From: Kineococcus radiotolerans SRS30216 = ATCC BAA-149
GTDB lineage: Bacteria; Actinomycetota; Actinomycetes; Actinomycetales; Kineococcaceae
Assembly (NCBI RefSeq): GCF_000017305.1
Contig: NC_009664.2
Span: 4,729,184-4,761,183, forward strand
DNA: 32,000 nucleotides
Direction of reading: 5' to 3'
Part shown: positions 1 through 23,770 of the stretch, piece after piece
How the letters are laid out: the number at the start of each line of letters is the position of its first letter
Numbering within the stretch: position 1 is the stretch's first letter
Program-made: the position numbers and the translations under genes
Notes under the pieces: generated by a model
Databases searched by the model: none
Told to the model about the DNA's origin: nothing
What the model saw: only the letters and a program-made list of their open reading frames with translations

Positions 1-201
1 TTCGGTACCGGCCGGCCATCCGGTGAACTGGAGGGTGACGGCGTCCTGGGTTGAGGTCTCCTCGGTCCACTGGAACGCGCGCCCGGCCACGCTGTACCCG
101 GCCACGCTGTACTCGGCCACGTCGAGCAGATCAGCAGAGCCCCCAGCGCACCCCACCGGCGAAGCAAGAACGCCCCGTCGGGGTCCGCGGGTGTCGCTCA
201 T
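1..201 (-). CDS. hypothetical protein, 5' part only (runs off the left edge of the window)
   Basis: ATG at 199-201 overlaps the TGA (198-200) of the upstream minus-strand gene (ATGA coupling). The frame stays open for all 67 codons to position 1, mostly with G/C third positions (MSDTRGPRRGVLASPVGCAGG...VAEYSVAGYSVAG...TLQFTGWPAGTE). It is absent from the ORF track because no stop lies inside the window. Confidence 0.4.
   Translation of the reverse strand, partial: MSDTRGPRRGVLASPVGCAGGSADLLDVAEYSVAGYSVAGRAFQWTEETSTQDAVTLQFTGWPAGTE
85..121. repeat. 15-bp tandem repeat GGCCACGCTGTAC(C/T)C, 2.5 copies, in frame in the partial CDS (VA(E/G)YS units)
   Basis: Read directly: 85-99, 100-114 and partial copy 115-121. 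Confidence 0.85.
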
Positions 202-1271
202 CGTCCTTCGGCGGCCGGGAGCCCGCTGGCACGCAGGTCAGCGACCGCGGCCGTCAGCAAGGTGGTCAGTTCGCTGACCGCGTCCTGCGCGGGGTGCAGC
301 ACGGTGATGCCGACGATGAGGTCCCCGACGCGGGCGGCGCCGGAGACGAAGGGCAGTCCGTTGCTGTCGGTGTGCGCGGCCCAGGTCTGGTCGGCTCCGG
401 CGACGGTGATGGCGAAGGGTGTGGTCGGGTCGGTGAACCGGCAGACACCGGTGTTGGCGACGAGGGCGTCGAAGGCGATCGGTCCCCCGCCGGTGGCCCG
501 GCCGGTGACGACCAGGTCCACGCTGGCCTGGTTCGGCCAGCGCTGGATCTCGTTCCACCAGGTGATTTGCCGCCCGGCCACCATCGGTGGGTCGAAGGGC
601 CGTGAACTGCAGGCCTGCCCCATCACCGTCGGGCTCTTGGGGTACTGCCCGCGGTCGCCGAGGACCACTAGTCCGGCAGGCAGGGCTGCCCGGGTCCGTG
701 TCATGTCGGGGATGTCGTAGGCGACGGGGACGTCCGGGTTGGCCAGCCCCACCGAGGAACCGGCTGTCGAGTCGACCGAAGGGGTGCTGGCTGGTGACTT
801 GCTGAGGGTGGAAGTCCCCGCCGCCGTCTGCGCCGGAGTCTGCGCCGCGGTTGGTGCCGGGGTCTGGGTCGGGGTTCCGGTAGGTGTGGGCGTCAGCGAG
901 GCCGCCGGGACGGTGCGCACGCTGGGCTCGGCGCTCCAGTGCAACCCTAGGGGGAGGGCGATGACAGCGGCCAGGGTGAAGGCGCCTGCGACGGCACGGG
1001 TGCGTCGGCGGTGCTGGATGCGTCGGCGCAGCTGGTGGCGGGTGCCGGCGTGCAGGCTGGCCTCGTCAATGCGGCCGGCGTGGAGCTCCTCGTGCAGGGC
1101 GCTCTGCAGGTGGTGCTGCAGCTGGAGTAGGTCGTCGAGGTCAGCAAGCTCATCGTGGTCGGTGTCGGGGCGGTCGGTGTCGGCGCGGTCGGTGTTGGGG
1201 CGGTCGGTGTCGAGGTGGTCGGCGTCGTCCTCGCCGGGGGTGGGGTGCTGGTCACGAGGTCGCTGGGTCAT
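198..1271 (-). CDS. putative anti-sigma factor / single-pass membrane protein co-transcribed with the ECF sigma factor
   Basis: 357-aa ORF. Its ATG (1269-1271) overlaps the sigma-factor stop (ATGA). It has an acidic N-terminus with TDRP-type pentapeptide repeats and one hydrophobic helix (AVAGAFTLAAVIALPLGL). A Thr/Pro-rich linker and a roughly 190-aa C-terminal domain follow. Its position directly downstream of an ECF sigma gene is typical of anti-sigma factors. No HxxxCxxC zinc motif was seen, so the function is inferred from context only. Confidence 0.65.
   Translation of the reverse strand: MTQRPRDQHPTPGEDDADHLDTDRPNTDRADTDRPDTDHDELADLDDLLQLQHHLQSALHEELHAGRIDEASLHAGTRHQLRRRIQHRRRTRAVAGAFTLAAVIALPLGLHWSAEPSVRTVPAASLTPTPTGTPTQTPAPTAAQTPAQTAAGTSTLSKSPASTPSVDSTAGSSVGLANPDVPVAYDIPDMTRTRAALPAGLVVLGDRGQYPKSPTVMGQACSSRPFDPPMVAGRQITWWNEIQRWPNQASVDLVVTGRATGGGPIAFDALVANTGVCRFTDPTTPFAITVAGADQTWAAHTDSNGLPFVSGAARVGDLIVGITVLHPAQDAVSELTTLLTAAVADLRASGLPAAEGR
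1157..1231. repeat. 15-bp tandem repeat GGTCGGTGTCGGGGC, about 5 copies, in frame in the anti-sigma-like CDS
   Basis: Units at 1157-1171, 1172-1186, 1187-1201, 1202-1216 and 1217-1231, with 1-4 substitutions each. They encode DTDRP/NTDRA/DTDRP/DTDHD. Confidence 0.85.
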
Positions 1272-2981: not shown

Positions 2982-3950
2982 TCAACGGCGGCCCCTGCTC
3001 AGCTTGTGCTGCGTCTCAGGCGCACCCCGCCGGAGCCCATCCTGTTGGCCTCGTCGCTGCTGAATCTTTAACCGCTGGTGCTGCTCGCGGCGCTCACAGA
3101 AGGTCGCCAGGTGCTCGGCGGCCTTGGCCGCGGTGTCCAGCGGCAGGGCCTGGTCAGGACTCGTCGGGCCGGCCATGACCGGTCGCCAGGTGTCGCTGTC
3201 ACGGAAAGCGACGATGAGGACGCCGTCGCGGTCGACGACCTGGCTGTGGAGGTTGGGGGCGCCGGGTCCGGCGAGGACGAGGACGGGCCGGACGGGCGTG
3301 TGGATGCCGTGGCTGCGCAGCAGGGCTGCGGTCTTGGTGGCGCCTTGGCGGGCTTGGCGGAGCTTGGACTCCAAGCCGTAGGTGTCTTCCAGGCTCTGCT
3401 GGCGGCTGAAGAGGGCTTTGACTTCGAGGGCGAAGCAGCCTTTGGGGGCCAGGACGACGTGGTCGACGTCGAAGTGCTCGAAGGGGATCGCGCTGATGAC
3501 GCCGTACACGCCGTCGGTGGTGCGCAGCTCGTCCCCGACGTCGCCCTCGACGCCGCGGCCGAGCCGGGCCAGGAGGCTGCCGTCGGCCAGGGCAAGGAAG
3601 CCGGCCCAGCCGACGGCGGCGGCGCCGAGGAAGACGCCGAGGATGCCGGCCTGCAGCTGCGGGTGCTCCCGGGCGCCGTAGCTGAAGGAGACAGCCGCGA
3701 GAGCGAAGGCGGCGAGGAGCTTGGTGAGGTCACGCCAGTTAGCGCGCAGCAGGTGCCGGCGGCGTGCGCGGAGGTCCTGCTCGAGCCAGGAGGCGCGTCG
3801 GCGTCGGTAGCGAGGGTAGGGCAGGCGCAGCTGGCCGTATCCGCGGCGATCACGCAGCCATCTCACCAGCGCAGCATCGACGTGGTGCGGGCTGTGCTTG
3901 AGGTCTACACCCTCACCCGCGTCGGTCTCTCGTCCCCGCTGGTCTTTCAC
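2982..3950 (-). CDS. membrane-anchored NERD (nuclease-related domain) protein
   Basis: 322-aa ORF with GTG start. Two hydrophobic helices (LLAAFALAAVSFSY and ILGVFLGAAAVGWAGFLAL) are followed by a NERD-like core: GVEGDVGDELRTTDGVYGVISAIPFEHFDVDHVVLAPKGCFALEVKALFS...RPVLVLAG. It is transcribed divergently from the SIR2-like gene across a 95-bp gap. Confidence 0.75.
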   Translation of the reverse strand: MKDQRGRETDAGEGVDLKHSPHHVDAALVRWLRDRRGYGQLRLPYPRYRRRRASWLEQDLRARRRHLLRANWRDLTKLLAAFALAAVSFSYGAREHPQLQAGILGVFLGAAAVGWAGFLALADGSLLARLGRGVEGDVGDELRTTDGVYGVISAIPFEHFDVDHVVLAPKGCFALEVKALFSRQQSLEDTYGLESKLRQARQGATKTAALLRSHGIHTPVRPVLVLAGPGAPNLHSQVVDRDGVLIVAFRDSDTWRPVMAGPTSPDQALPLDTAAKAAEHLATFCERREQHQRLKIQQRRGQQDGLRRGAPETQHKLSRGRR

Positions 3951-4045
3951 CTACCCGGGACCTCTCGCCCGCACTGGCGCTCCGCCCCTGTACAGCGCTC
4001 GCGACAGGACGCAAACGCCCGTAGAAGTCAGCCCGTTGGGACAAG

Positions 4046-5845
4046 ATGAGACGCGTGGATGCTCATGTCTCCCTGGCCTTGGCCTTGCAGTCCGGCCCCG
4101 GCACGGTCGCTGCCTTGCTCGGGGCCGGTGCGTCGGCGTCGGCGGGGCTGCCCACGGCGTGGGAGGTGCGGCAGGAGCTGATCCGCCGGGCCGCGCTCGC
4201 TGCCGGTGAGGCGGTGCCGACCGACCCCGAAGCATGGTGGTCTGATCGCGGTGGCAGCGCAGGCTACGACGGGCTGCTGGCGGAGCTGGCGCCCACGCCG
4301 GCGGGGCGGCGCGACTTGCTGCGGGGCTTCTTCGAGCCCACCGAGGACGGGCGCGAACGGGGGGAGAAGCGTCCCGGTGCGGTGCACCACGCGCTGGCCC
4401 AGCTGGTGGTCACTGGCGCGGTGCGGGTGGTACTGACGTTGAACTTCGACCGCCTCATCGAGACCGCGCTGCGCGAGGCGGGTATCGAGCCGGTCGTCAT
4501 CGACTCTCCGGCCGCGGTGGAGGGGATGGAACCGCTGCAGCACCAGCGAGCGGTGGTGGTGCACCTGCACGGTGACTACCTCTCACCCGCGACGCTGAAC
4601 ACCCCCGAGGAGCTCAATACCTACCCGGCTGCGCTCAACGCCTTGATCGATGAGGTCTTCGACCGTTATGGCCTGCTCGTCATCGGCTGGTCAGCGACGT
4701 GGGACAACGCCCTCCGAGCGCGCCTGCAGGCCGCCCGCAGCCCCCGCTACGGCACCTGGTGGATCGACCAGTTCCCCCTAAGCGGGCACGCCCAGGACCT
4801 GGCCAGCGCCCGTCGGGCCGCGGTGGCTATCGCAGATGCGGGGGTAGAGCTGGCGCGGGTGGTCGACGCGCTGCAGGCGCTCGCGGAACAGCGCCTGCAG
4901 GATCCCGTGGGGCCGCCCGCGGCTGTGGCCTTCGCCAAGCGAGCCCTGGCCGGGGCGAATGTGGCCATTGGTTTGCATGACACCCTCAGCCGGGAGACCG
5001 ACCGGGTAGCGAACCTCGACGCTGTCCGCTCAAATGAGTTCAACGTGGGCGGTAATCAGCTGGCGGCCGTGTACGCCCGTCGTCGGGATCAGATTCTCGC
5101 CGGCACCGCCACGTTAAGCGCGCTGGTGGCTACCAGCGCTTACTGGGGAAATGAGCGCACCGATGCTTGGTGGTTACCCACCATCACCCGCTCGGTGCCA
5201 CGCGAGATCGTCGGTGGACTCACGCCGTTGATCGGCCTGCGTTTGGGAGTGGCGACGCTGCTGACCCACGCCGCCGGCATCGCTGCCACCGCCGTCCGTC
5301 GCGACGAGCTGGTTGCCCACTTGGCCGCCGGTAACCGCCTCACGTGGAATGACCAAATCCTAGAGGCGGCTGCGGTGCTGACCCCGGCGGTGTTGTGGGC
5401 AGAAGACGGCGCCGACGCCGAACTGCGCCTGCGAGAGTACTTGCGGCCGCTGCTGCAGAACCACCTCGCCCTCGGCGCCGCCGGGTATGAGCACGCGTGG
5501 GAGGACTGGGCCGCAGTGTGTTACCTCACCCGGCGGCAGGCGGGCACCACTGTGGCTGCTCCCCTCATGGTCATCGACGGCAACGAACCGTACGCGCCGG
5601 CCTTGAAGCGACTCAAAGGGCGAATCAAGGATTTACCGGAGAACACGGGCCTGTTCGCTCATGGCAATCTTGGCGGCAGGATCGGGCTGGCGTGGCCGCT
5701 CCTCGAACGCTACGAGAGTCAGGTCGCCGAGTGGGCCAAGGAGCTCGACCGGAACCACATTACTCCCTTTGGTGCCGGCATCGGAGGAGGCGTCATTCCT
5801 ACAGGGCCGCGTTACCCCGGTCGTCCTGATTTGGCGTGGCGCTGA
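4046..5845 (+). CDS. SIR2-like (SIR2_2 family) domain protein with an uncharacterised C-terminal helical domain of about 340 aa
   Basis: 599-aa ORF. N-terminal motifs: LLGAGASASAGLPTAWE (GAGxS...P.W), VVLTLNFDRLIE (Asn133, codon 4442-4444), VVVHLHGDY (His175, codon 4568-4570) and LLVIGWS. This order and spacing are typical of SIR2_2 NADase-type domains. No motif was recognised after about residue 250. Confidence 0.85.
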   Translation: MRRVDAHVSLALALQSGPGTVAALLGAGASASAGLPTAWEVRQELIRRAALAAGEAVPTDPEAWWSDRGGSAGYDGLLAELAPTPAGRRDLLRGFFEPTEDGRERGEKRPGAVHHALAQLVVTGAVRVVLTLNFDRLIETALREAGIEPVVIDSPAAVEGMEPLQHQRAVVVHLHGDYLSPATLNTPEELNTYPAALNALIDEVFDRYGLLVIGWSATWDNALRARLQAARSPRYGTWWIDQFPLSGHAQDLASARRAAVAIADAGVELARVVDALQALAEQRLQDPVGPPAAVAFAKRALAGANVAIGLHDTLSRETDRVANLDAVRSNEFNVGGNQLAAVYARRRDQILAGTATLSALVATSAYWGNERTDAWWLPTITRSVPREIVGGLTPLIGLRLGVATLLTHAAGIAATAVRRDELVAHLAAGNRLTWNDQILEAAAVLTPAVLWAEDGADAELRLREYLRPLLQNHLALGAAGYEHAWEDWAAVCYLTRRQAGTTVAAPLMVIDGNEPYAPALKRLKGRIKDLPENTGLFAHGNLGGRIGLAWPLLERYESQVAEWAKELDRNHITPFGAGIGGGVIPTGPRYPGRPDLAWR

Positions 5846-5981: not shown

Positions 5982-8900
5982 TTACTGCTCCAGCTCCTTC
6001 TGGACAAGGATCGCCACTGACGACCCGCGTCGAGCGAGGTTGTCGACCAGTTGCAGTAGAGCCCGACGCAGCGATCCAGGTTCGTGCTCCTCCCGCACCA
6101 CATCTCGCAACCAGGTCTCGACGTATTGACTACGCCCCAGAATCCGAGACCCGTCGGGCCCAATCATCCTCAGGACGAGGCCCATTGCCTGGGGCGTACG
6201 TTCCAGCGCGTTGGCGGCCAGGCAGAGCAGCAGCCGGTCGACGAGGTCGGGGGACGGTTCGGACGCCGTCACCCAGCGATCGATCACGCGGGCGTACTCA
6301 TCTGGCGGCCAGGAGGCTCCGGACTGCGGTATCGGTAGTAGCGCTTCGTCCAGTTTACGTCTCGATGCTTCTTGTCGGGACCGGCGTGATGCTTCCCGTG
6401 CAGACCGCGCCGCGGGCAGCAGCTGATCAAGCAGTCTGGGCCAGACCTCGAACGACCGTTGTCCCTGCGTGGTCGACACGGCCTGGAGCGCGAGTGACTC
6501 AACGACAAAAGCCAGCTCCTCGGGGGCAGGGGTGAACGCCGTGAGATAGCGGTCGAGGATGTCGTCATTGCCGTCGAGCACCGCGGAGGAGACCCAGAGA
6601 CTGATCTGCTGACACCAGTAACGCGATCCGCGAAACCCGCGGGGGATCGCATCGGTGGGTCTACGCCTTAGGTCATACTCGACAAGCGCGGCCAGCGTTC
6701 GTCGAGCGCCCTCGCCGTGCGGGCAGTCACAACGTGCCGCCGCCCTTAGCCCGGGTAGCGCGTCCGCGGCGGTGTCGTAGTTCAACAGGGTGTCGGGATC
6801 GGTAAGCGCCTCCTCAAGAGGTTGCCTCAAACGCTTGCGGGGACGTTCTTGACCGTTCCACGGACCAACTCCTGCAGCCAGGATCCACTCAAGGTAGACG
6901 GCCATGGCGGTGGTGTGTCGTGCGTGAGTCCTCTGCTTCGTGCAGTCGGTGTCGTTCCACGCTGCGGCCAGCCCTTGCAGGAGGCGGTCTCTGACCTGGC
7001 GGGACTGACTGGCCGACAGCATCTCTACTATGGAGGTGAACTGATCCTTATCTTTGCCGCATGCATCCAGGAGGAGGTCGTCGCTGAGCAGGCGGGTGAT
7101 CGCGGTCGCGAGTGACCGGTCGGCGCCGAAGTCCCAACTCATGTCGCGGTCAGCGTCCGCGAATTTGGGCGTGTTCTCGTTCACGAGGCGGAGAAGTGTT
7201 TCCACGGCGGTGGGCAGCATCTGTAGTTCTGCCTCGCCGCCACGGGCCGCCTGCACTACGACGGCGGCCGCAGCCATCGCCAAGGTCTCGGCAGGGTTGA
7301 AGGCGATGCCGAGCTCGGAGTCGCTGCCCTCGTCGCGCACCATGGTCCCAACGGTGGTGTACAGCTGCGCTGCCGAGCCGGGCTGGTCTACTGATTCGTC
7401 GCGGATCTTCATGGCGGCGAACAGGTGGTTGGACAGCTCGAGACGGGTGCGGGCCTCACGGCCGCCGCCTTCTTCCAGTTGCTGTTGAAGATCAGAGGGC
7501 AACTCGACTGAAACCTCCAGCTGGTTCGGCTGGTTCTCGACCGGGTTGAGCCGGTAGTACTCGATCCGAAACATGGACGCGCGCCGCCGAGCGACGGCCA
7601 GCTCCGGGGAGCCCTCAGCGGGTTCACCTTGGCGAGCACGGGAGTTTGTCAAGAACCGTTCACCGGTCGCTTCGAGTTCACGGCGACGTTCCTCGTCGCC
7701 ACCTAGTACGAGCTGTATGACGACACCGTCGACCTGGGTGCTCAGCCCGGGCTCGCCGGTGTCCCACCCTGCACCACCACCGAAGATTCGGGACGTTTCC
7801 ATGTCCCAGACGTCCGGCTCTTGGAGGAAGGGGTCTAGCAGTGCACCGGAAGTCGATGGGTTAATGAGCAGGAGGGAGTACCCCACGGCTGCCAGTGCCG
7901 GACTCACACCTGCGAGCAGGACATCGTCCAGGATTTGTTCTAGAGGCCGCTTGCTCACCTGTGCAACTGCCCATCGGCGCAGCGCCATTAGAGCCGACAT
8001 GGCCGGGTAGGGCCCGGTACCAGCCCGCTGGTACCACCCCCAGGCAGAAGCGGGACCGCGATAGGTGCGGGCGTTCGACCAGTGCGGGAAGGTGAGTTCG
8101 AGAGCCAGTGGACGCTGCGGCCTGGAGAACGAAGCTTCTTCGCGTCCTCGGTGCCGGGTGGCGGCATCGACGACGGCACCCACCAGCCTCAGACCGTGGG
8201 CAGGTGAGTGGTCCAACAGGACAGCGAAGGGCCCCCAGTCGGGCCCAGTCAAACCGAAACCGCGGCGGCGTGCGGTGCGGTGCGAGTGGTCGCGGATACC
8301 GTCCTCGTCGCCTGGAACGCCCAGCCGTCGGCGGCCTCGCAGGGTGCGGCGCGGGGTCATCGGGAGCCGGCCTCGTGCACCATCCATGTCCAGCGGCCAG
8401 TCGAGGTAGTAGCAGCCAGCCAGTTCCAAGAGCAGATCGGGGTTGTCTCGGGCCAACGCGGCTGCAACGTCCGGATCTTCGATGATTGCTTCGAGGTCGT
8501 CGCCGCGTTCGACAGCTCGCTCGAGAAGCGGGCTGGCTTCGGCGGGGAGGTTCTGGCCGAGCAAGCCGAGGACGGCAAGGGCGGACTCGTAACGCTGCCC
8601 ATACGTGGCATCCCCAGCCCAGCTGACCGTCGCGGCGCACAACCGCGATGAGTCGATGCCGAAGTCGCCCGGCCGCAGGCGGTGGAGTTCCAGACTGCGG
8701 AGCCATCGTTCCGTCAGCAACACGGCGGACGCTGCCAACCCTTCCGACAACTCCGCGGCGGTAGCGATCAGCAGTCCGATCACCGGGGCAGCCAGCACGC
8801 TGTTGAGAACGAGACTGGCACCATCGAGCGTCATGCGGTCGGGCGTCGTACGGTCGGTCGTCGCGAAACGAGTCGTCACCGCGATGAGCCGCGCGACATC

Positions 8901-10988
8901 CAAAAGACGCGGTTGTCCGGCGGTGTTGGGGACCAGCTCCTGTAGGTCGAGCCGCTGCAGACCGAGCCCCTGCAGGACAACCCCGGGGTCAGCCAAAGAC
9001 AAAGCCGACTCGTACGGGACGTCACTCCAGCGGTCGCCGTCGCGGGCCGCGAGCCGTTCACAGACTGACAGTTGCTGCTTCCAGACAGCGCGCAGCTCTG
9101 CCGGGTCGCTCGCTGCGGACAGGGTGCGTTGTCCGGCCAAGCGGACTGCTCGCAACAGCGGACGAGGGGAGTGAACCTGTTCCAAAAGCGCCGGATCGTC
9201 GGCCAGGACCATGGCTGCTGCGTAGTCGGCCAGGACGTCGTGGGAAAACCGGTACGTCCGGCCGTGGCGCGTCAGGACGTCGTCGCTGACGAGGCCGCCC
9301 ACTGCGGGGCCAGGAACCGTTGACAGGGATGTGCTGCCCGTGCCGGTGATGACGGCTTCCGCCGCCTCCTCCCAGGCGCGGCTTCGCTCATGGGGTAATC
9401 CCTGCCCTGGACGCATCCCCTCGGAGCGTCGGACGACCGTGTTGTAGAAGAGGTCGAGGATGGTTTCCTCACCGATCGGGTCCTGCTCGGGCAGGGCACT
9501 GCCTGACCGGACGATGAGATCGACGAGGTACGGCCGGCGCAGGAGCTGATTACTGCGAGGGTGACGCAGAAGAGGCGCCAGGAGAGGGAAGGCCTGCTCC
9601 ACCTCGTTCATCTCGTCATCGGTGAGGTCGCCCACCGGCACGTGTGAAGTCAATCGATCACCGAGATGATGGGTCAGAGGGTCGGCAGCTTCTCGGCGGC
9701 AGGTGATGACGACGGTCCATGGCGGACTCTTCCGTCCGCCCGTGGGTGCCGCGTCCAGCAGGAACTCCAGCAGCCGTCCTGCGTCGGCCAGGGCGTTCTC
9801 GGCCCCGTCAATGAGCAGGATGCGAGACCCCGCGGTGGGTGCGGCTGCCAGCGCTGTGGGCAGGTGGGGGATACCCAGCTCGTCCTGAAGGCTGGTGGGA
9901 CTGTCGCCGCCTCGCACAGCAAGATTGATGGCCACCACCGTCGCGTTCTCGCCCTGCTCTTGCACACAGCGACGAGCCAGGACCGATTTACCCACACCGG
10001 CGCTTCCTGAGATCAGCACCAGCCCACCGCCCGCAACAGCCCGGTCGATCTGATCGACAACGCGTGCGCGTTCCAGGCGCAGGGTCCCGCCGATCTGGTC
10101 GACGGTGCGTGCCAGCTCATCCGCCGACGCGGTGAGGACACGCTCGAGCTCGTGCCTGTGCTGGGGAGCGGTGTCCAGGGCGACACCTGCGGCCAGGAGG
10201 GCGGCCCGGAGCATGGGCACGTTGATGACGCCCGCGTTCGGTCCCCAGCCTTCAGCCAGCGTACGCAGCTGCGCGAAGAGCGAGCGCACCGACGGCGCCG
10301 CGGAGGGGAAGACCTGCGCGAGGCGGCTCAAAGTGTCAAGGAAGTCGCGCCCGTCCTCACCGATCTCCATGATCCACACGTGCAGATGACGCAGAAGGTC
10401 GTGGACGAGCCGGTCCACCCCCAGCTCGTCGACCTCTAGGCCCTGTCCGGTGCTTTCCTGGTCGCCTCGTTCGGCTAGGACCCGCTCGACGGCGGCCTTG
10501 ACGTGGTCGTACCGACCACGGACCTCGGCGCTCATCGCTCCCGGCATGAGCAGCCCGAGGAAGGTGTCAACGCTGGTATGAGCCCGGGCGATGACGGTCA
10601 ACCGGTGCAGCTCTTCCAGCTGGGCCCTCGGGCCGCCGGCGGCGAGGCCTAGACGGAGGCTGCCTGCGTCCAGCTCGTCGTGTCGGGTGGACAGCTCCTG
10701 CAGACACTGTCCCAAGACGTCGAGGAACGCGCGGTCTGAGGGGGTGGGAGCCGCCCGGCGCTTGACCTGGTAGTCGATGCTCGATGGCGATGCGCCCTGA
10801 TTGGAGGTCAGGACCAGGTCGTCCAGAGCGTGGCCTGCTACGCGCCGCTGTAGGGCGATGCTGGTGGGGGCTGTGTCCAGCCCTGGCATCAAGTCCCCGG
10901 TCAGCAACCGTCCCAGCGCGAGTGCGGCGAGGGTGTACTCCTCGATCGTGCCCGCCCCGCCGGTTGCCTCAGGCGACACCTGTGCCAC
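5982..10988 (-). CDS. giant NACHT/STAND-like P-loop NTPase with an N-terminal Cap4/DUF4297-like (PD-(D/E)xK-type) module and a helical C-terminal region of about 1200 aa
   Basis: The uninterrupted ORF spans 5982..11231 (1749 aa). Walker A GSAGVGKS lies at 9984-10007. Walker B ILLIDGAE lies at 9798-9821, followed by VVITCR (NACHT-like hhhTSR). N-terminal segment (10752-10961): GGAGTIEEYTLAALALGRLL...IALQRRVAGHALDDLVL...IDYQVKRR. I prefer the GTG start at 10986-10988 (VAQVSPEATGG...). Codons between 10989 and 11110 are rich in A/T-ending and AGA/AGG codons. Further upstream, the open frame shares third-codon positions with the opposite-strand ORF (a shadow). Alternative starts are ATG 11078, 11111 and 11231. 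The stop is TAA. Confidence 0.85.
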   Translation of the reverse strand: MAQVSPEATGGAGTIEEYTLAALALGRLLTGDLMPGLDTAPTSIALQRRVAGHALDDLVLTSNQGASPSSIDYQVKRRAAPTPSDRAFLDVLGQCLQELSTRHDELDAGSLRLGLAAGGPRAQLEELHRLTVIARAHTSVDTFLGLLMPGAMSAEVRGRYDHVKAAVERVLAERGDQESTGQGLEVDELGVDRLVHDLLRHLHVWIMEIGEDGRDFLDTLSRLAQVFPSAAPSVRSLFAQLRTLAEGWGPNAGVINVPMLRAALLAAGVALDTAPQHRHELERVLTASADELARTVDQIGGTLRLERARVVDQIDRAVAGGGLVLISGSAGVGKSVLARRCVQEQGENATVVAINLAVRGGDSPTSLQDELGIPHLPTALAAAPTAGSRILLIDGAENALADAGRLLEFLLDAAPTGGRKSPPWTVVITCRREAADPLTHHLGDRLTSHVPVGDLTDDEMNEVEQAFPLLAPLLRHPRSNQLLRRPYLVDLIVRSGSALPEQDPIGEETILDLFYNTVVRRSEGMRPGQGLPHERSRAWEEAAEAVITGTGSTSLSTVPGPAVGGLVSDDVLTRHGRTYRFSHDVLADYAAAMVLADDPALLEQVHSPRPLLRAVRLAGQRTLSAASDPAELRAVWKQQLSVCERLAARDGDRWSDVPYESALSLADPGVVLQGLGLQRLDLQELVPNTAGQPRLLDVARLIAVTTRFATTDRTTPDRMTLDGASLVLNSVLAAPVIGLLIATAAELSEGLAASAVLLTERWLRSLELHRLRPGDFGIDSSRLCAATVSWAGDATYGQRYESALAVLGLLGQNLPAEASPLLERAVERGDDLEAIIEDPDVAAALARDNPDLLLELAGCYYLDWPLDMDGARGRLPMTPRRTLRGRRRLGVPGDEDGIRDHSHRTARRRGFGLTGPDWGPFAVLLDHSPAHGLRLVGAVVDAATRHRGREEASFSRPQRPLALELTFPHWSNARTYRGPASAWGWYQRAGTGPYPAMSALMALRRWAVAQVSKRPLEQILDDVLLAGVSPALAAVGYSLLLINPSTSGALLDPFLQEPDVWDMETSRIFGGGAGWDTGEPGLSTQVDGVVIQLVLGGDEERRRELEATGERFLTNSRARQGEPAEGSPELAVARRRASMFRIEYYRLNPVENQPNQLEVSVELPSDLQQQLEEGGGREARTRLELSNHLFAAMKIRDESVDQPGSAAQLYTTVGTMVRDEGSDSELGIAFNPAETLAMAAAAVVVQAARGGEAELQMLPTAVETLLRLVNENTPKFADADRDMSWDFGADRSLATAITRLLSDDLLLDACGKDKDQFTSIVEMLSASQSRQVRDRLLQGLAAAWNDTDCTKQRTHARHTTAMAVYLEWILAAGVGPWNGQERPRKRLRQPLEEALTDPDTLLNYDTAADALPGLRAAARCDCPHGEGARRTLAALVEYDLRRRPTDAIPRGFRGSRYWCQQISLWVSSAVLDGNDDILDRYLTAFTPAPEELAFVVESLALQAVSTTQGQRSFEVWPRLLDQLLPAARSAREASRRSRQEASRRKLDEALLPIPQSGASWPPDEYARVIDRWVTASEPSPDLVDRLLLCLAANALERTPQAMGLVLRMIGPDGSRILGRSQYVETWLRDVVREEHEPGSLRRALLQLVDNLARRGSSVAILVQKELEQ

Positions 10989-11145
10989 ACCCACTCGCCC
11001 CCCGTGAACGACCACATGACCTGCTCTGATCGGCGACCCGTCCGATGGGGCGGGCCGCCAAGCCCTACGACAGATCATCTTGCCCGAGGGGCTCCGTCTT
11101 GACGCCCTCATCCCAGATACGTCCACGATCGACGCGGTTGTCTCG

Positions 11146-12060
11146 ATGAGCGCGCCCAACGGCACGAGCAGGCCGCCGTGTGGGCGGTGGGGGACCGCTA
11201 CGCCGCGGCGCGCGGCATCGCGGACGGGCATCCCGCTGGGTCAGCTGATCCTGGTCGGGCACCACAGCGAGGGCCGGGCCCGGCGAGACGCGGCCCGGAT
11301 GGGCGCGCACATGGATGCCAGCGTGGCCCACACCGACGCAGCCGAGGAGGCGCGGCGGGCGGCGCGGATCGCGAAGGCGGCCACCGATGCCCGCTACAAC
11401 CCGGTGACGGTGGCGAAGCGAGTGGAGCGGTTGACCCCCAGGGTGGGGGCCGAGGAGAAGGCGCTCGCGCACTGCGAGCGCGCGGTCGCTGCCGGGCAGG
11501 CCGCTGCTGCGGCCCTGAGCGCGGTTGGCGGCCCGGACTCAGACCTGGATCGGGGGCAGGTGCAGCCCGACCGTCCTCGGGCTGGGGAGAGCGCGCAGGG
11601 GGCCGCGGTGCGGTATGGGCTGAACATGGCCGCCCACGCGGCCGCAGTCGCTGAGCGGTTGCAGGCGCACCGTGCCGACCTGGCCCACTGGCAGGCGGTG
11701 CGTGCCCGGCAGGTCGCGGATGGGACGGCCACCGGCGTCGGCCGGCACAACGTGGCGGCCGGGGATCAGGTGCGGGTGCGTGGGCACTGCTACGAGGTGG
11801 TGCGGGCGAACGCGAAGACGGTGACGGTGCTCGGCATGTTCGGGCCCCGCGCGACCCTGTGGCAGGAGGTCCAGGAGCACCGGCGGGGAGCAGGCGGGAC
11901 CGGTGACCAGGCGAGGGCGGGGGGGGTGACTCAACCCCTGTTCACGGCCCGTCAACCTCCGGCCGCGTCGGGGCCGGGCGTCCCGGCCGCGCAGTCGTGG
12001 CCCTGTGACGATCCAAATTTCTTCGGTACCTCCCGCGCCTGCGCATCTGCGGGACCCTGA
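11146..12060 (+). CDS. DUF3560-like protein (mobile-element/plasmid-associated family), apparently lacking the usual N-terminal part
   Basis: Matches my recollection of DUF3560 proteins: GQLILVGHHSEGRARRDAARM...ARYNPVTVAKRVERL...WQAVRARQVADGTATGVGRHNVAAGDQVRVRGHCYEVVRANAKTVTVLG. ATG 11146 is chosen. The track ORF begins at 11080, but that stretch is antisense-shadowed by the giant ORF. The start is uncertain. Confidence 0.55.
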   Translation: MSAPNGTSRPPCGRWGTATPRRAASRTGIPLGQLILVGHHSEGRARRDAARMGAHMDASVAHTDAAEEARRAARIAKAATDARYNPVTVAKRVERLTPRVGAEEKALAHCERAVAAGQAAAAALSAVGGPDSDLDRGQVQPDRPRAGESAQGAAVRYGLNMAAHAAAVAERLQAHRADLAHWQAVRARQVADGTATGVGRHNVAAGDQVRVRGHCYEVVRANAKTVTVLGMFGPRATLWQEVQEHRRGAGGTGDQARAGGVTQPLFTARQPPAASGPGVPAAQSWPCDDPNFFGTSRACASAGP

Positions 12061-12094
12061 GACAAACGGGCGGGCCGCGTGGAATTGTGACCGA

Positions 12095-12679
12095 GTGCAA
12101 CAGCTCATCACTGCGCCCTTCTTCCGGCGACTGGCCGCCCGGCTCATCGACCTCGGCTTCGCCCTGGTCCTGACCTTCGCCCTGGCCGTGGTCGTGGGCC
12201 TGATCTCAGGTCTCGTGACCGCCTTCAGCGGTGGCCTCGACGAGGATGGACTGGCGATCGCGCTGCTGGTCTGGCTCTGCTACTTCCTGGCCTACGTCGC
12301 GCTGGAGTGGTTTCTGGTGGTCAACCGCGGCGGGCAGACGCTGGGCAAGGGGCTGATGGGCATCAGGGTGGTCCGTGCATCGGGCACCGGCGTCGCCCCC
12401 GCTTCGTCCTTCGTTCGCCTTTTCGTGTTCTTCATCCCGTTCTTCTTCGCCTCGCAGGCTGGGGGGTCGACGTCGGCCGGGTGGGAGGCGCTGGCCACTA
12501 TCGGGTTCTTGTGGTCCACAGCCACACTGATCATGGTGTGCATCCGGCCAGGCGGTCGGCGTGGGGTTCACGACTACTTGTCGGGCACTCGGGTCGTGCT
12601 CGCTCCGAGGCGCAAAGTGAACCTGCGGAAGGACATTCCGATGATGGTGCCTAGGCGGGTTGACCTCACCAAGCGCTGA
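12095..12679 (+). CDS. RDD family membrane protein
   Basis: RRLAARLIDLGFALVLTFALAVVVGL..., then LEWFLVVNRGGQTLGKGLMGIRVV and RRGVHDYLSGTRVV, with 3-4 hydrophobic helices. The track ORF starts at GTG 12005, but codons 12005-12094 are A/T3-rich (CAA ATT TCT GTA CCT). In-frame GTG 12095 is therefore preferred. The start is uncertain. Confidence 0.75.
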   Translation: MQQLITAPFFRRLAARLIDLGFALVLTFALAVVVGLISGLVTAFSGGLDEDGLAIALLVWLCYFLAYVALEWFLVVNRGGQTLGKGLMGIRVVRASGTGVAPASSFVRLFVFFIPFFFASQAGGSTSAGWEALATIGFLWSTATLIMVCIRPGGRRGVHDYLSGTRVVLAPRRKVNLRKDIPMMVPRRVDLTKR

Positions 12680-13171
12680 CCGCGAAGTGTCACCATTCCC
12701 TCGACCAGTAGCGCCGTGGCTTGGTCGTCGTGCGGACGGTGGCGCCGCGGCTGGGATTGCAGGTGGTGAGGAGGAGCTGGTCGGCTTGGGTTCCGCCATG
12801 TGCTCGGGCGAGGGTGTGGTCGGCCTTAAGGGGCATGTGGTCGACCTTGAGGGCAACGTCGCGGAACATCTGCGGTCCCTGACCGACGGGAGGCTGTCGG
12901 ACGCGCGTTCAGATGCCATCGGTCACGGGGCGGTCGGGTCGACGTGTTCGACGACGGCGCCCAGGAGGACGCCGACAGCCTGGACGAGGGGGTCCAGGGC
13001 ATTCGCGGCGTCGGTGGGGTGACGGTGCCGCTCAGGACGCCCAGGAGGAAGAAGGGCCCGGCGGCCGCGACGGGTACCGCGAGGACGGCGACGACGCGCA
13101 GCAGGGCGGCGAGTGAGACCTGCCGAGCGGGCTGTGTCGGGTTGTGTCGGGCTTCGTTGTAGTGATGCGGG

Positions 13172-13531
13172 TCAGGCGGCGTGGGCTTCGCGGTCGTAGA
13201 CGAGGGTGGCGGCTTGGTAGAGGGGGGCGAGGTCGAGGTCGCAGGTGTGGCAGAGGTGGTGCAGGTCGCTGAGCAGTTCGATGAGGGCTTGCTGCATGTC
13301 CTCGGCGTGGCTGCCGCTGGCGCGGGTGTGGTGGTGGAGGGCTTGGGCGGCGTAAGCGGCGCGATGGGCGTTGGTGTGGCGGGCTCGGGCGGCGCGGGTG
13401 GCGGGGTCTTCACCGTCGGGTGCGGCGCTGCTGAGGGCGGTGACGCTGGCGCTGGCGTGAGCGTTGGTGCCGGCGCGGGTGCTGGCGCTGGTGTCGGCGC
13501 TCGCGGGTTGGTGGGTGGGGGTCTGGGTCAT
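13172..13531 (-). CDS. hypothetical small protein (Ala/Thr/His-rich N-terminus, helical C-terminus)
   Basis: Internal ATG at 13529-13531 (MTQTPTHQPASAD...) is preceded by AAGGAC. The C-terminal AEDMQQALIELLSDLHHLCHTCDLDLAPLYQAATLVYDRE resembles small helical proteins found in actinobacterial phage/ICE regions. No family was assigned. Confidence 0.45.
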   Translation of the reverse strand: MTQTPTHQPASADTSASTRAGTNAHASASVTALSSAAPDGEDPATRAARARHTNAHRAAYAAQALHHHTRASGSHAEDMQQALIELLSDLHHLCHTCDLDLAPLYQAATLVYDREAHAA

Positions 13532-13782
13532 GGCGGGTCCTTGAGTGGGTAGTCCGGGGGTGGGAGCCCAGGGGTGGAGTGCAGTGAGGGTGCTACGGGG
13601 AGGTGCTGGCGGCCCTGCTGCCCTTGTGAGCCACGGCTGGGGAGCCGGGCCCATGAGCCGTATCTGCGGGGTTGGTGCTCTGCTGCCCGTGGCGGATCTG
13701 GTGAGGCGGCCTGTGGGGCGGCGGGGAAGTGGTGCTGCTCGCCAGAGCGGGTGCTCGAGCCGGGCTGTGCTGGGCCGGTCTG

Positions 13783-14340
13783 TCAGCTGGCGGGGTGCTG
13801 GGTGGGATGGGTGACGATGAGGGTGAGGTGGGGATCGCTACTGCGGGGTCCTTGGACGGCAGCGTCAGCGGTGGCGGTGGCCTCACGGATGGGCGCGGGC
13901 ACCAGGTGCAGCCCTTGCTGCGGCTTGGACTGCGGCTCCTGGTGCTGGTGCTGGTGCTGCTGGGCTGGGGGGCGGGCGAGGCCGGCGAGGTGACCGCTGC
14001 CGGCGGGTGATCCGGTCCCGGACGGGGGGAGGGGCTCGCTGATGAGTCTGATCACCGGCGCGGAAGGCTGGGCGGTGGTGGAGGCGCTGCGGTGGGCGGC
14101 CTGCAGATGAGCGGCGCGTAGCTGGATGTCCTGCTGCGCGGCGTCGAGATGGGTAGCCGAGCCGGTGGCGGAGCTTGTGGCGTAGCCGGCGAGGTAGCCG
14201 AAGAGCGCGGCCGCGGGGACGGCGGCCAGGAGCAGGAGGGCGCGTTCGCTGGCCTTGGCCGGGGCGAGCAGGGGAATGAGGGTGAGGGTGGCGAAGGAGG
14301 TCAGGCCGACGGTGGTGGCTCGACGTGTGTTGATGTGCAT
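13783..14340 (-). CDS. hypothetical membrane protein
   Basis: ATG at 14338-14340 (MHINTRRATTVGLTSFATLTLIPLLAPA...) with two hydrophobic helices, then a Gln/His/Pro-rich tail. The upstream part of the 266-aa track ORF is Pro/Thr/Arg-rich and unlikely to be coding. Confidence 0.4.
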   Translation of the reverse strand: MHINTRRATTVGLTSFATLTLIPLLAPAKASERALLLLAAVPAAALFGYLAGYATSSATGSATHLDAAQQDIQLRAAHLQAAHRSASTTAQPSAPVIRLISEPLPPSGTGSPAGSGHLAGLARPPAQQHQHQHQEPQSKPQQGLHLVPAPIREATATADAAVQGPRSSDPHLTLIVTHPTQHPAS

Positions 14341-14601
14341 GGTGATGCGGGGCACGTCGACGCTCCTGCCTGCTTCAGATGCCAGCTGACCCGTGTCTTT
14401 CAGTCCCGGTGAGCACTTCATTGGGCTGATGGGCTCTCGCGTTTCACTCTGGGCTGAGCCTGCCACACCGGTGCGCTGATGGCACGGGGTGTGGGGCGTG
14501 GAGAGCGTCGGGGTTGGGCCCCCCCCGGTACGTAAGGACATCCGTCGCGACATCGGCGAAGGCGCCGGCGTTGATCGGGCCATTGATCACGCCATCAGCG
14601 A

Positions 14602-15177
14602 TCACGTCGACCAGGGATCGCGTCCACCAGCTGTCGTGTCGATCACTGCGTCGCTGGCCCGCGGCCGGCTGATCTCGTCGCCGGTCTCGTCGCTGGCCGC
14701 TTGCCACCGTCCGGTGAGCTCCTCGCACGCTCGTGGACCCTTCCCGGTCGGCGCTGGCGGGCGGGGAGGTCGCGTCGGTGGGGCCTGCCGCCTGGGGCTG
14801 AGCTCCGCGGGGGTCAGTTGGGCGGCTTGGTAGGCGCGTAGGAGGGTGGGGCTGATGCGGCCGGTGGCGGTGACGCGGTGGCCGTGGGTGCGGGCCCAGG
14901 AGCGGATGATGCGGTGGTCAGGGGCCAGTGTGGTGCGCTTGCAGTTGTCGCGGTGCCCGATGGTCTGGGCTCCGGTGCGGCGGGCGTGTTGGATGAACAC
15001 GTCGAGGCTGGCGCGCAACTGGCGGGCGTGGTCGGCGTTGAGGTCGATCTCGTGAGCGTCGCCGTCGAGGGTGAAGGTGAGGCGTTCGGTGGCGGGGCTG
15101 CCGTCGATGTTGTCGCTCAGTTGGGTGGTGGTGCGGGTGGCCGTGGGGCATGGTGACAGACGCCCGGGCGCGGCCAT
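14602..15177 (-). CDS. lsr2: Lsr2-family nucleoid-associated protein (xenogeneic-silencer type) with N- and C-terminal extensions
   Basis: Dimerisation-domain match: LSDNIDGSPATERLTFTLDGDAHEIDLNADHARQLRASLDVFIQHARRTG. DNA-binding-domain match: DHRIIRSWARTHGHRVTATGRISPTLLRAYQAA. Both align residue by residue with mycobacterial Lsr2 as I remember it. Start is ATG 15175-15177 or 15184-15186. The ORF continues about 77 codons past the point where Lsr2 normally ends. Confidence 0.8.
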   Translation of the reverse strand: MAAPGRLSPCPTATRTTTQLSDNIDGSPATERLTFTLDGDAHEIDLNADHARQLRASLDVFIQHARRTGAQTIGHRDNCKRTTLAPDHRIIRSWARTHGHRVTATGRISPTLLRAYQAAQLTPAELSPRRQAPPTRPPRPPAPTGKGPRACEELTGRWQAASDETGDEISRPRASDAVIDTTAGGRDPWST

Positions 15178-15440
15178 GGGCCTCATTCAGGCCGAGAGCA
15201 ACCGCAACCTCAAATCACCGGCGGCCAATTACCCGGATTGAGTGACAATGAGCAGGAAGCGTCTGGTTCGTATCAGGTTGATACTGCTTCTTTCTCCGCT
15301 GGATGCTGATGCTTACTAGTGGAGGAGGGGGTGGTGGAGAACGGGTTCGCGTCGAGGGTTCGCGGGAAAGGGCGGTACCGGTTCGTTCCGCCGCGGGCCT
15401 CAGGTTCGGTGTTCACGGTGAGGACCTGACGTGTGCGGCC

Positions 15441-22880: not shown

Positions 22881-23770
22881 TTGATCCCCGTGGTCGCGAT
22901 GCCCTGGACGATGTACTTCTGGGTGAAGAAGAAGAAAAGAGCGATGGGGATCAGGGACAGCACCGACATCGCCAGCAGGGGTCCCAGACCGCTTCCGGAT
23001 TCGGTGCTCACCAGTGAGTTCAGTCCCAGCGGCAGGGTGTACTGGGCGGGGTCGGTGAGGTAGATGAGGGGGGAGAAGAAGTCGTTCCAGTTCCAGATGA
23101 AGGTGAAGATGGTGGTGGTGATCAGCGCGGGGCGCATCAGGGGCAGGATGATGGAGAAGAAGGTGCGGAAGACCCCGGCGCCGTCGATCGCGGCTGCTTC
23201 GTCGAGCTCGCGGGGTACCCCGCGCAGGAACTGGACCATGAGGAAGACGAAGAAGGAGTCGGTGGCCAGGATCTTGGGCAGGATGAGTGGCCAGTAGGTC
23301 CCCACCAGCCCCACGGAGGCGAATTCCACGTACTGCGGGATGGCCACGACGTGGTAGGGGAGCATGATGCCCGCCAGCATGAGGGCGAAAGCGACGTTCT
23401 TGAACTTGAAGTCCAGGCGGGCGAAGGCGTAGGCCGCCAGCGAGCAGGACACCAGGTTGCCGATGACGCAGCCGATGACGACGATCAGCGAGTTGACGAT
23501 GTAGACGGGGATGCCGCCGCCTACCCCGGACGCCCAGCCGATGCGGTAGTTCTCCCACGTGATCGAGGTGGGGATGATCGAGAACGACGTCATGATGTCG
23601 CTCTCGGGGGTGATGGAGCTCTTCAGCATCCACAGCACCGGGTAGAGCATGGCGATGGAGCCGATGAGGAGGGCGACGTGCTTGAGGGTGGAGTGGCGCC
23701 GCCCGCTGCGCCGGCGCAGCTCAGGTCCGCGGGTGTCGGTTCGGCTCTTGGTGAGTGTGGGACTAGTCAT
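22877..23770 (-). CDS. carbohydrate ABC transporter permease (MalG/CUT1-type)
   Basis: 297 aa with six hydrophobic helices and an EAA loop: PRELDEAAAIDGAGVFRTFFSIILPLMRPAL. The start overlaps the upstream permease gene by 8 bp. Confidence 0.9.
   Translation of the reverse strand: MTSPTLTKSRTDTRGPELRRRSGRRHSTLKHVALLIGSIAMLYPVLWMLKSSITPESDIMTSFSIIPTSITWENYRIGWASGVGGGIPVYIVNSLIVVIGCVIGNLVSCSLAAYAFARLDFKFKNVAFALMLAGIMLPYHVVAIPQYVEFASVGLVGTYWPLILPKILATDSFFVFLMVQFLRGVPRELDEAAAIDGAGVFRTFFSIILPLMRPALITTTIFTFIWNWNDFFSPLIYLTDPAQYTLPLGLNSLVSTESGSGLGPLLAMSVLSLIPIALFFFFTQKYIVQGIATTGIK

Follow-up and report, generated by a model that had tools for sequence, protein, structure and literature searches.

We found that the 1.8-kb gene at 4046-5845 (+) of a 32,000-nucleotide stretch of Kineococcus radiotolerans SRS30216 = ATCC BAA-149 DNA (assembly GCF_000017305.1, contig NC_009664.2, positions 4,729,184 to 4,761,183; hereafter the window, in which all coordinates are counted from the first letter) encodes a 599-amino-acid (aa) protein that, as judged from its sequence, stands alone, belongs to the defence-type SIR2_2 class and has its catalytic residues intact. 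The SIR2 domain is followed by an all-alpha C-terminal domain (C-domain) of about 315 aa. Our preferred interpretation, which we hold at somewhat better than even odds (about 0.55), is that the protein is a single-polypeptide, NAD-depleting abortive-infection sensor-effector of the DSR kind that carries a new sensor. The N-terminal SIR2_2 domain (approximately residues 1-285) would act as an NAD+ glycohydrolase (NADase), and the C-terminal all-alpha domain (approximately residues 286-599) would serve as the regulatory or sensor module, holding the enzyme inactive as long as the cell is uninfected. On meeting an infection cue, for which a phage protein is the most probable candidate, the C-domain would switch the enzyme on, probably via a change of oligomeric state as in DSR2, ThsA, SPARSA and KomC, and the ensuing depletion of NAD+ would leave an infected cell that no longer supports phage replication, i.e. 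abortive infection. The SIR2 gene would need no partner and would move horizontally as a single cassette. What we infer for this protein is thus that it is active as an NADase, acts against phage, senses through its C-domain and is activated by oligomerisation; the SIR2 domain is read as an enzyme of this type from its Pfam match, its conserved catalytic residues and its nearest relatives, which in sequence as well as in fold are anti-phage proteins acting on NAD+ in every case.

The gene is a real one. The open reading frame (ORF) at 4046-5845 (+) starts with ATG and comprises 599 codons plus a stop. Since long spurious ORFs are common in a window of about 70% G+C, its codon-position composition was checked: the G+C content at third codon positions (GC3) was 0.81 overall and lay between 0.70 and 0.86 in every block of 100 codons, and the translation gave a full-length match to the PADLOC model PDC-S65. 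ORFs that overlap the gene on the antisense strand or in another frame were ruled out as genes by their shadow-frame codon patterns. The translated protein is 100% identical to a K. radiotolerans entry annotated as ‘SIR2 family protein’ (P0001), for which the NCBI start is a GTG at 4055, three codons downstream of the ATG at 4046, giving 596 aa.

The SIR2_2-type domain occupies residues 1-262 (4046-4831, +) and was delineated by Pfam, Foldseek and the structural model as a Rossmann core with a helical insert at approximately residues 53-110, the latter taking the place of the zinc-ribbon module of sirtuins. Pfam SIR2_2 (PF13289) matched residues 128-244 with 41.5 bits against a gathering cut-off of 24.5 (E 1.8e-10). 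An earlier note, made from the DNA sequence alone, had read a complete series of SIR2 motifs in this part of the protein, and a script located every one of them where the note had placed it: the GAGAS motif of the glycine-rich NAD-binding loop (residues 26-30, 4121-4135), GLPTAWE (residues 34-40), TLNFD with the predicted catalytic Asn133 and Asp135 (residues 131-135, 4436-4450), HLHG with the predicted catalytic His175 (residues 173-176, 4562-4573) and VIGWS (residues 212-216). The alignment of homologues bears out these assignments, with T131, N133, F134 and D135 invariant in all 60 aligned sequences, H175 present in 59 of the 60 and G176 again invariant; in a wider set of 79 family members G26, G28 and S30 were at least 95% conserved. 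Deposited structures named DSR2 (H171A) and KomC(H146N) carry their mutation at the histidine equivalent to H175.

A full-length AlphaFold2 model built from the 60-sequence alignment had a mean predicted local distance difference test score (pLDDT) of 92.1 and a predicted template modelling score (pTM) of 0.72, with the pLDDT of the SIR2 domain mostly above 90. When this model was compared with the PDB using Foldseek, only SIR2 domains of NAD-depleting defence proteins were retrieved; the top match was the SPARSA SIR2-APAZ chain 8y80_E (E 2.7e-10, 312 columns, root-mean-square deviation (rmsd) 4.8 Å), and DSR2, ThsA and KomC were also found. The template modelling (TM) score normalised to the stand-alone SIR2 chains was 0.65-0.72 (for KomC, 0.68-0.72 relative to its 264-277-aa chain), and stand-alone SIR2 proteins of 264-277 aa aligned over 282-296 columns, which places the end of the SIR2 fold at about residue 262-285. 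The earlier note was correct that an additional C-terminal domain exists, but its border at about residue 250 was too early, so that the C-domain measures approximately 315-337 aa (from residue 286 or 263 to 599) and not 350.

The NCBI annotation of the protein is a generic ‘SIR2 family protein’ and weak partial matches to CobB were seen, both of which would suit a housekeeping sirtuin-like deacylase, or a regulator outside defence. We regard this as very unlikely, and the alternative, which had been raised in the earlier note, fails on several counts. The CobB equivalog models reached only 15-21 bits overall against cut-offs of 243-320 (NF040867, 21.5 bits versus 320; NF003738, 16.7 versus 305), the domain is of the SIR2_2 type, and no Cys4 zinc ribbon can be present because the whole protein contains one cysteine. 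The patchy, multi-phylum and partly plasmid-borne distribution of the family, the variable neighbourhoods of its genes and the G+C dip in the window, all described below, also speak against a housekeeping role.

Among characterised systems, the SIR2 subtype of the SPARSA SIR2-APAZ proteins (e.g. from Geobacter sulfurreducens; 8in8, 8jkz, 8y80) comes closest, both in sequence and in fold. Apart from PDC-S65, all PADLOC matches were confined to the SIR2 part of the protein, the best being Aga_SIR2, the SIR2-APAZ protein associated with prokaryotic Argonaute (pAgo; E 9.8e-24, residues 108-242), followed by ThsA, and the PDB sequences matched by the SIR2 part were 8in8 and 8jkz (E 2.2e-6). SIR2-APAZ proteins are also of nearly the same length (584-587 aa versus 599 aa), which prompted the idea that the C-domain might be an APAZ domain. 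This was excluded by a fold search with the C-domain alone, which gave no match to the 8y80, 8jl0 or 8jkz chains; the similarity to SIR2-APAZ proteins ends with the SIR2 domain (residues 108-242 by sequence, approximately 312 columns by fold), and the flanking genes in the window encode a NERD-domain protein and an AAA_16 NTPase rather than a pAgo. The overall plan of the protein is closer to that of DSR2 from Bacillus subtilis, which is likewise a single polypeptide encoded by a stand-alone gene, with an N-terminal SIR2 NADase that carries the same Asn/His pair and a helical sensor region, and the SIR2 domains of the two superpose (Foldseek E 2e-9 to 1e-6). The difference lies in the remainder: DSR2 has about 1,000 aa, a MID domain and an alpha-solenoid C-terminal domain (CTD) that binds a phage tail-tube protein, whereas the K. 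radiotolerans protein has 599 aa and a C-domain of about 315 aa. The PADLOC DSR models did not match the 599-aa protein, and the C-domain alone found no DSR2 chain in the PDB fold search, which excludes its being a DSR2 MID or CTD. Full-length Foldseek alignments to DSR2 and ThsA extended over 500-770 columns (600-770 for DSR2) and are considered spurious beyond the SIR2 domain because of their rmsd of 17-21 Å.

Other SIR2 systems depart further from the architecture described here. ThsA resembles it in that its N-terminal SIR2 NADase is under the control of a C-terminal domain (Foldseek E 2e-9; PADLOC ThsA E 2.7e-5, residues 112-193), but the regulatory domain of ThsA is SLOG (or Macro) and its activation needs the TIR protein ThsB; no SLOG or Macro domain was detected in the C-domain by Pfam, PADLOC or fold search, and a TIR neighbour was not conserved across the loci of the family. 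In SIR2-HerA (Nezha) and SIR2-STAND (Avs5) systems an ATPase is coupled to SIR2 by fusion or through a conserved adjoining gene; the protein described here has no ATPase fusion, and the NTPase gene of the window is convergent and was never found with the homologues examined. The sole-Sir2 protein is encoded by a single gene and is reported to convert NAD+ to ADP-ribose in vitro, and a homologue is reported to protect E. coli against T2 and T4; sole-Sir2 differs in having about 440 aa with the SIR2 domain at its C-terminus, behind an unrelated N-terminal part, i.e. the opposite domain order (bioRxiv 10.1101/2024.12.27.630466). In one further study, the systems validated in Streptomyces are not described as SIR2 proteins (bioRxiv 10.1101/2025.01.08.631966).

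The C-domain is the part of the protein that sets it apart. It is joined to the SIR2 fold by a long connecting helix of intermediate conservation (residues 263-285, 4832-4900; helix 265-284 according to DSSP), and consists of a better conserved, all-alpha proximal half (residues 286-430, 4901-5335; alignments A1 and A2) and a fast-evolving distal half (residues 431-599, 5336-5842), as seen from conservation and tblastn, the latter half made up of a beta-hairpin at 431-440, helices and a C-terminal tail that is present in about one-fifth of the family members compared. A model of residues 263-599 alone, built from 19 sequences, had a pLDDT of 87.5 and a pTM of 0.87, and in the AlphaFold models DSSP assigned approximately 15 helices and the single hairpin, in agreement with the helical appearance remarked on in the earlier note. 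The C-domain model had no significant neighbour among PDB folds (best Foldseek E 0.24, TM ≤0.25) or among the viral folds of BFVD (best E 0.41), its profile had no match among PDB sequences (best E 1.8), and individual members of the domain gave nothing consistent in Pfam and PDC-S65 alone in PADLOC. The note's statement that this region is unrelated to SLOG, TIR, HerA, pAgo, Macro and STAND modules is upheld by sequence profiles as well as by the fold search, APAZ and DSR2 MID/CTD can be added to that list, and neither profile nor fold related it to any DSR- or ThsA-type sensor. One of the 19 C-domain sequences (alignment A2) matched Pfam PF19996 (ivWA-helical_N, the helical region of vWA proteins of the FtsH ternary system; E 1.4e-4) and the other 18 did not; this sole hint of a relative is probably an insert or a chance match.

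Conservation falls steeply along the protein. In the 79 family members compared, which come from many phyla, the identity to the K. radiotolerans sequence averaged 46% for residues 1-262, 29% for residues 263-430 and 16% for residues 431-599, and of the columns conserved in at least 80% of members 16 lay within residues 286-430 and one in the distal half. The proximal half is marked by a signature comprising P287, A293, K298, R299, L301, L310-H311-D312, AYWG (365-368), W376, G411 and R419. Alignments to distant relatives by tblastn usually ended at about residue 420-490, and a homologue on a Gordonia plasmid was 48% identical in the SIR2 domain with a C-domain detected by hidden Markov model (HMM) only (E 8e-18). 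Plasmid matches that covered the SIR2 part alone, as in Gordonia, were considered as cases of sensor exchange, but their architecture proved unchanged, the C-domain being very divergent. We read this gradient as suggesting that a conserved core adjoining the enzyme, with a coupling or regulatory role, is combined with a diversifying recognition surface, and it is the pattern that would be expected of a conserved effector joined to such a surface.

The same features bear on a second interpretation, in which the protein is a ThsA-like effector whose C-domain binds a small molecule produced by an unlinked enzyme, either a second messenger or a metabolite of phage or host, with this ligand switching the NADase on. 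The tight set of conserved charged and aromatic residues in the proximal half (K298, R299, H311, D312, Y366, W367, W376 and R419) is typical of a ligand pocket, and in the fold search ThsA was one of the proteins whose SIR2 domain matched. However, the C-domain resembles none of SLOG, Macro, SAVED and CARF, no signal-generating partner (TIR, CD-NTase or cyclase) was found as a conserved adjoining gene in 80 related loci, and the very fast evolution of the distal half fits recognition of a protein better than binding of a ligand. We consider the ligand-gated alternative improbable.

The full-length protein belongs to a catalogued family. PADLOC PDC-S65 (PDLC05061) aligned residues 3-559 with profile positions 15-585 of 592 (E 1.7e-141), PDLC05060 matched the 599-aa protein with E 5e-91, and the C-domain alone matched the PDC-S65 model with E 1.4e-24. 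The predicted architecture is thus already catalogued as PDC-S65, the K. radiotolerans protein being by sequence a member of the same family with no structural difference. The distribution of this 600-aa architecture, which the earlier note had proposed to survey, is indeed wide, but the architecture is not new. The designation PDC stands for ‘phage defence candidate’ and covers 145 single- or multi-gene candidates, untested according to their authors (Payne et al., bioRxiv 10.1101/2024.01.29.577857), which were derived by guilt-by-embedding from genes lying inside BREX, DISARM and type I restriction-modification (RM) loci (bioRxiv 10.1101/2024.01.29.577857). Neither the name PDC-S65 nor a description of its domains was found in the literature searched, that study included. 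The system type, an SIR2 NADase and a sensor in one protein, is already known; the new part is the C-domain without recognisable relative.

At least 571 relatives were confirmed in GTDB species genomes, spanning Actinomycetota, Pseudomonadota, Acidobacteriota, Chloroflexota, Cyanobacteria, Planctomycetota, Verrucomicrobiota and Archaea, with a median length of 584 aa and near-full HMM coverage. Homologues were also present on 47 plasmids, including megaplasmids of Halobacterium. The gene is taken to be mobile on account of this spread of at least 571 relatives over multiple phyla, the 47 plasmid records and the local dip in G+C content. No homologue was found in phage genomes besides one weak match to the SIR2 part only. 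In a haloarchaeal virus, Haloferax virus Halfgib1 (MW344766.1, 13494-13889), a gene annotated as ‘tetratricopeptide repeat protein’ has an SIR2-like stretch corresponding to residues 110-240 of the query (29% identity, E 8e-7), and its product would be a virus-encoded SIR2-TPR protein.

An exhaustive search of 1.84 billion cluster representatives (50% identity) with an HMM profile of the C-domain returned 1,957 matches at E ≤1e-3 and 1,105 at E ≤1e-10. Among the retrieved proteins of at least 560 aa, 148 of 150 were also covered by the full-length family HMM over the SIR2 domain. Shorter matches of approximately 400-470 aa, considered as possible alternative architectures, turned out to be N-terminal truncations that start from a conserved internal methionine (MLNT, residue 184). 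A different N-terminal domain was found in P0180, a metagenomic protein of 590 aa on a 2,152-bp ENA contig, in which a TIR_2 domain (residues 125-257; Pfam E 1e-9; ThsB-like in PADLOC) precedes a C-domain at residues 286-561; this C-domain corresponds to positions 310-578 of the PDC-S65 profile (E 1.3e-19) and to residues 292-529 of the query. An exchange of SIR2 for TIR is as expected for a sensor module that serves interchangeable NADase effectors, and it is because the C-domain follows an SIR2 domain in 148 of 150 proteins and a TIR domain in P0180 that we regard it as modular. Two further searches found neither a relative of P0180 nor any other protein that combines TIR with the C-domain. 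In P0193 (607 aa) the C-domain (residues 321-590) stands behind an unrelated N-terminus with a long Pro/Glu-rich stretch of low complexity and no SIR2 domain, which may have arisen as a fusion artefact or may represent a third architecture. Taken at its broadest, the C-domain of about 315 aa would be an immune sensor of a new class, whose fold lacks relatives in the libraries of solved and viral structures; it would directly recognise a conserved phage component or an infection-derived metabolite and would be able to drive both of the common NADase effectors, SIR2 in nearly all cases and TIR in one. We put this forward tentatively, as a possibility short of even odds.

Two genes of the window flank the SIR2 gene. 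On the minus strand and divergent from it lies a gene for a 322-aa protein with a NERD (nuclease-related) domain (2982-3950; NERD E 2e-8, GC3 0.86), which had no PADLOC match. The spacer between the two genes, defined from the gene calls and the sequence, is 95 bp long (3951-4045) and is presumed to carry the promoters of both; no sigma-70 consensus promoter was found in it, a result that is uninformative for a high-GC actinomycete. An ORF at 3078-4049 (+), which overlaps the start codon of the SIR2 gene (ATGA) and thereby gives the appearance of translational coupling, was rejected as a frame shadow (GC3 0.76 versus 0.86). On the other side of the SIR2 gene is a giant gene for a STAND-like NTPase (5982-11231, -, 1,749 aa, with a probable start at 11015 giving 1,677 aa), convergent with the SIR2 gene and with 136 bp between the two stop codons. 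Its recognisable core is a weak AAA_16/AAA_22 match, below Pfam thresholds, at residues 387-504, and approximately 380 N-terminal and 1,100 C-terminal residues have no assignment; it matched PADLOC PDC-M54A with E 1.7e-9 and Avs4 with E 1e-6, the latter far under the NCBIfam cut-off.

The earlier note had suggested that the C-domain could be an adaptor that docks the SIR2 enzyme onto this NTPase, which as the sensor would make up the other half of a two-component system. The adjacency of the two genes and the weak similarity of the NTPase to Avs4 and PDC-M54A gave grounds for this idea, as did fused SIR2-STAND proteins (Avs5), which are described in the literature. The convergent orientation of the genes means that they do not form an operon, no domain common to the SIR2 protein and the NTPase was detected (best E 0.32), and the two do not co-occur in either direction. 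When 80 related loci with 10-kb flanks were searched by tblastn, no homologue of the NTPase or the NERD protein was found, and none was present in the contexts of the four closest relatives. Conversely, homologues of the NTPase (approximately 1,600-1,680 aa) were found in actinomycetes only, and for those in Sphaerisporangium, Kitasatospora and Saccharothrix (38-51% identity) none of the three contexts contained an SIR2 or NERD gene. We therefore abandon the adaptor proposal and consider a partnership with the NTPase extremely improbable. A further arrangement, in which the SIR2 gene is embedded in an operon of the NTPase and NERD genes (which flank it on the same strand), was rejected with the observation that the NTPase homologues lack NERD and that the NERD protein has no PADLOC match. 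The NTPase homologues stand alone, adjoining integrase, PIN, Fic, AbiJ and Endonuclease_7 genes, and the NTPase may be an uncharacterised Avs-like defence gene of its own.

No other partner emerged from the 80 loci. All-versus-all clustering of flanking ORFs gave no cluster common to more than six of them, the recurrent clusters being HsdR of type I restriction directly downstream (6/80), NB-ARC/TPR STAND proteins (5/80) and IS3 transposases (5/80). A scan of 118 immediate neighbours from 62 loci gave a heterogeneous set, with HsdS as immediate neighbour in three loci, and with a few ResIII helicases, SWI2/SNF2, Schlafen/AlbA_2, DUF499, Type ISP and DUF4917 proteins besides housekeeping genes. 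The closest relatives (52-64% identity) occupied four differing contexts, one with three integrases and DUF4062, one with an RHS toxin, one with insertion sequence (IS) elements and Abi_2, and one with AbiGi, an M78/HTH pair and a Multi_ubiq/ThiF cassette. Members of the family occur in mobile elements, on plasmids, at type I RM loci and in defence islands; the SIR2 gene of this window is flanked by the NERD and STAND-like genes, not by RM, BREX or DISARM genes. Because no partner is conserved in either direction of the neighbourhood analysis, we treat the SIR2 gene as a stand-alone cassette, and the NERD, SIR2 and NTPase genes as three independent tenants of one island.

Two of these contexts contained additional genes. 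In the relative P0004 (62% identity), a 200-aa ORF without Pfam match (L082 2587-3189, L083 3412-4014) overlaps the SIR2 stop codon by 4 nt, an arrangement of translational coupling, and is followed by a gene for a 2,249-aa RHS/YD-shell protein. Nothing equivalent is present in the window, and the 200-aa ORF could be a clade-specific accessory gene. Directly upstream of the homologue P0013 lies a series of Multi_ubiq, a small ORF, ThiF (E1-like) and a second small ORF (L085 7382-9861, L086 2644-5123), near AbiGi and the M78-peptidase/HTH pair, which resembles a defence module for ubiquitin-like conjugation within that island.

Some enzymes of the SIR2 superfamily are ADP-ribosyltransferases and not hydrolases. 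The protein might accordingly be an NAD-dependent modifying enzyme that ADP-ribosylates or deacylates a phage or host macromolecule, with the C-domain recognising the substrate, or a toxin in conflicts between mobile elements. The giant RHS/YD toxin gene adjoining one close relative, and the frequency of the family on plasmids and beside IS elements and integrases, would be in keeping with such a role. Against it, the characterised proteins nearest to this SIR2 subtype are without exception defence effectors that consume NAD+, and the clustering of flanking ORFs from the 80 loci revealed no small, immunity-like gene conserved beside the SIR2 gene. We judge a modifying enzyme or toxin to be unlikely.

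Several observations weigh against the sensor-effector interpretation that we favour. The literature searched gave no experimental test of any family member, so that both NADase activity and phage defence are extrapolated. The exchange of SIR2 for TIR was seen in one sequence, P0180, on one short metagenomic contig. The conserved charged and aromatic residues of the proximal half listed above (K298 to R419) could mark a small-molecule pocket or an intramolecular interface instead of a surface that senses a protein. The association with defence islands is qualitative and has no background control, and many of the neighbours are ordinary metabolic genes.

The G+C content of the window is lowered to 0.635-0.69 at 5-11 kb, compared with approximately 0.70-0.72 on the upstream side. 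Beyond the NTPase gene are genes for a DUF3560 protein (11080-12060, +), an RDD-family protein (12005-12679, +) and Lsr2 of the xenogeneic-silencer type (14602-15186, -), past which ordinary metabolism and transport genes resume. The NERD, SIR2, NTPase, DUF3560, RDD and Lsr2 genes together with the G+C dip look like a horizontally acquired island. No tRNA or att-like direct repeats that would mark its boundaries were found, nor any Rfam family, consensus promoter or terminator. Unusually strong strand asymmetry (GC skew +0.35 and AT skew -0.33 at 13-14 kb) and several overlapping candidate ORFs were noted at 13001-15000; the one ORF of this segment that was scanned against Pfam, 13783-14583 (-), had no match.

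Observations were also made elsewhere in the window. An ORF at 198-1271 (-) encodes a 357-aa protein without Pfam match and overlaps by 4 nt the stop codon of a gene for an extracytoplasmic function (ECF)-type sigma-70 factor (1268-1837, -), and its product may be the cognate anti-sigma factor. A 15-nt unit (GGTCGGTGTCGGSGC-like) occurs five times in tandem within this ORF, at 1142-1245, and would give its product a pentapeptide repeat close to the N-terminus. A glycoside-hydrolase-like ORF (GHL6/GH42) of 1,021 aa at 20568-23633 (-) overlaps the upstream ABC permease gene (22877-23770, -) in another frame by approximately 750 nt, and its translation probably begins far downstream of the position given by the longest-ORF call.

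SIR2 NADases are among the commonest effectors in prokaryotic immunity, and the sensing modules to which they are coupled differ, as in the DSR2 CTD, SLOG, pAgo/APAZ, HerA and STAND. For the window itself, the annotation is corrected to three independent defence-like genes in one island instead of an SIR2-NTPase two-component system. If the sensor-effector interpretation is true, PDC-S65 would be a widespread, pan-phylum single-gene abortive-infection system of bacteria and archaea whose recognition mechanism is not yet described, and the target of the C-domain, if shown, would add a new sensing principle to NAD-depletion immunity. Such a demonstration, for which one 1.8-kb gene is an easy target, would turn the catalogue entry PDC-S65 into a defined system.

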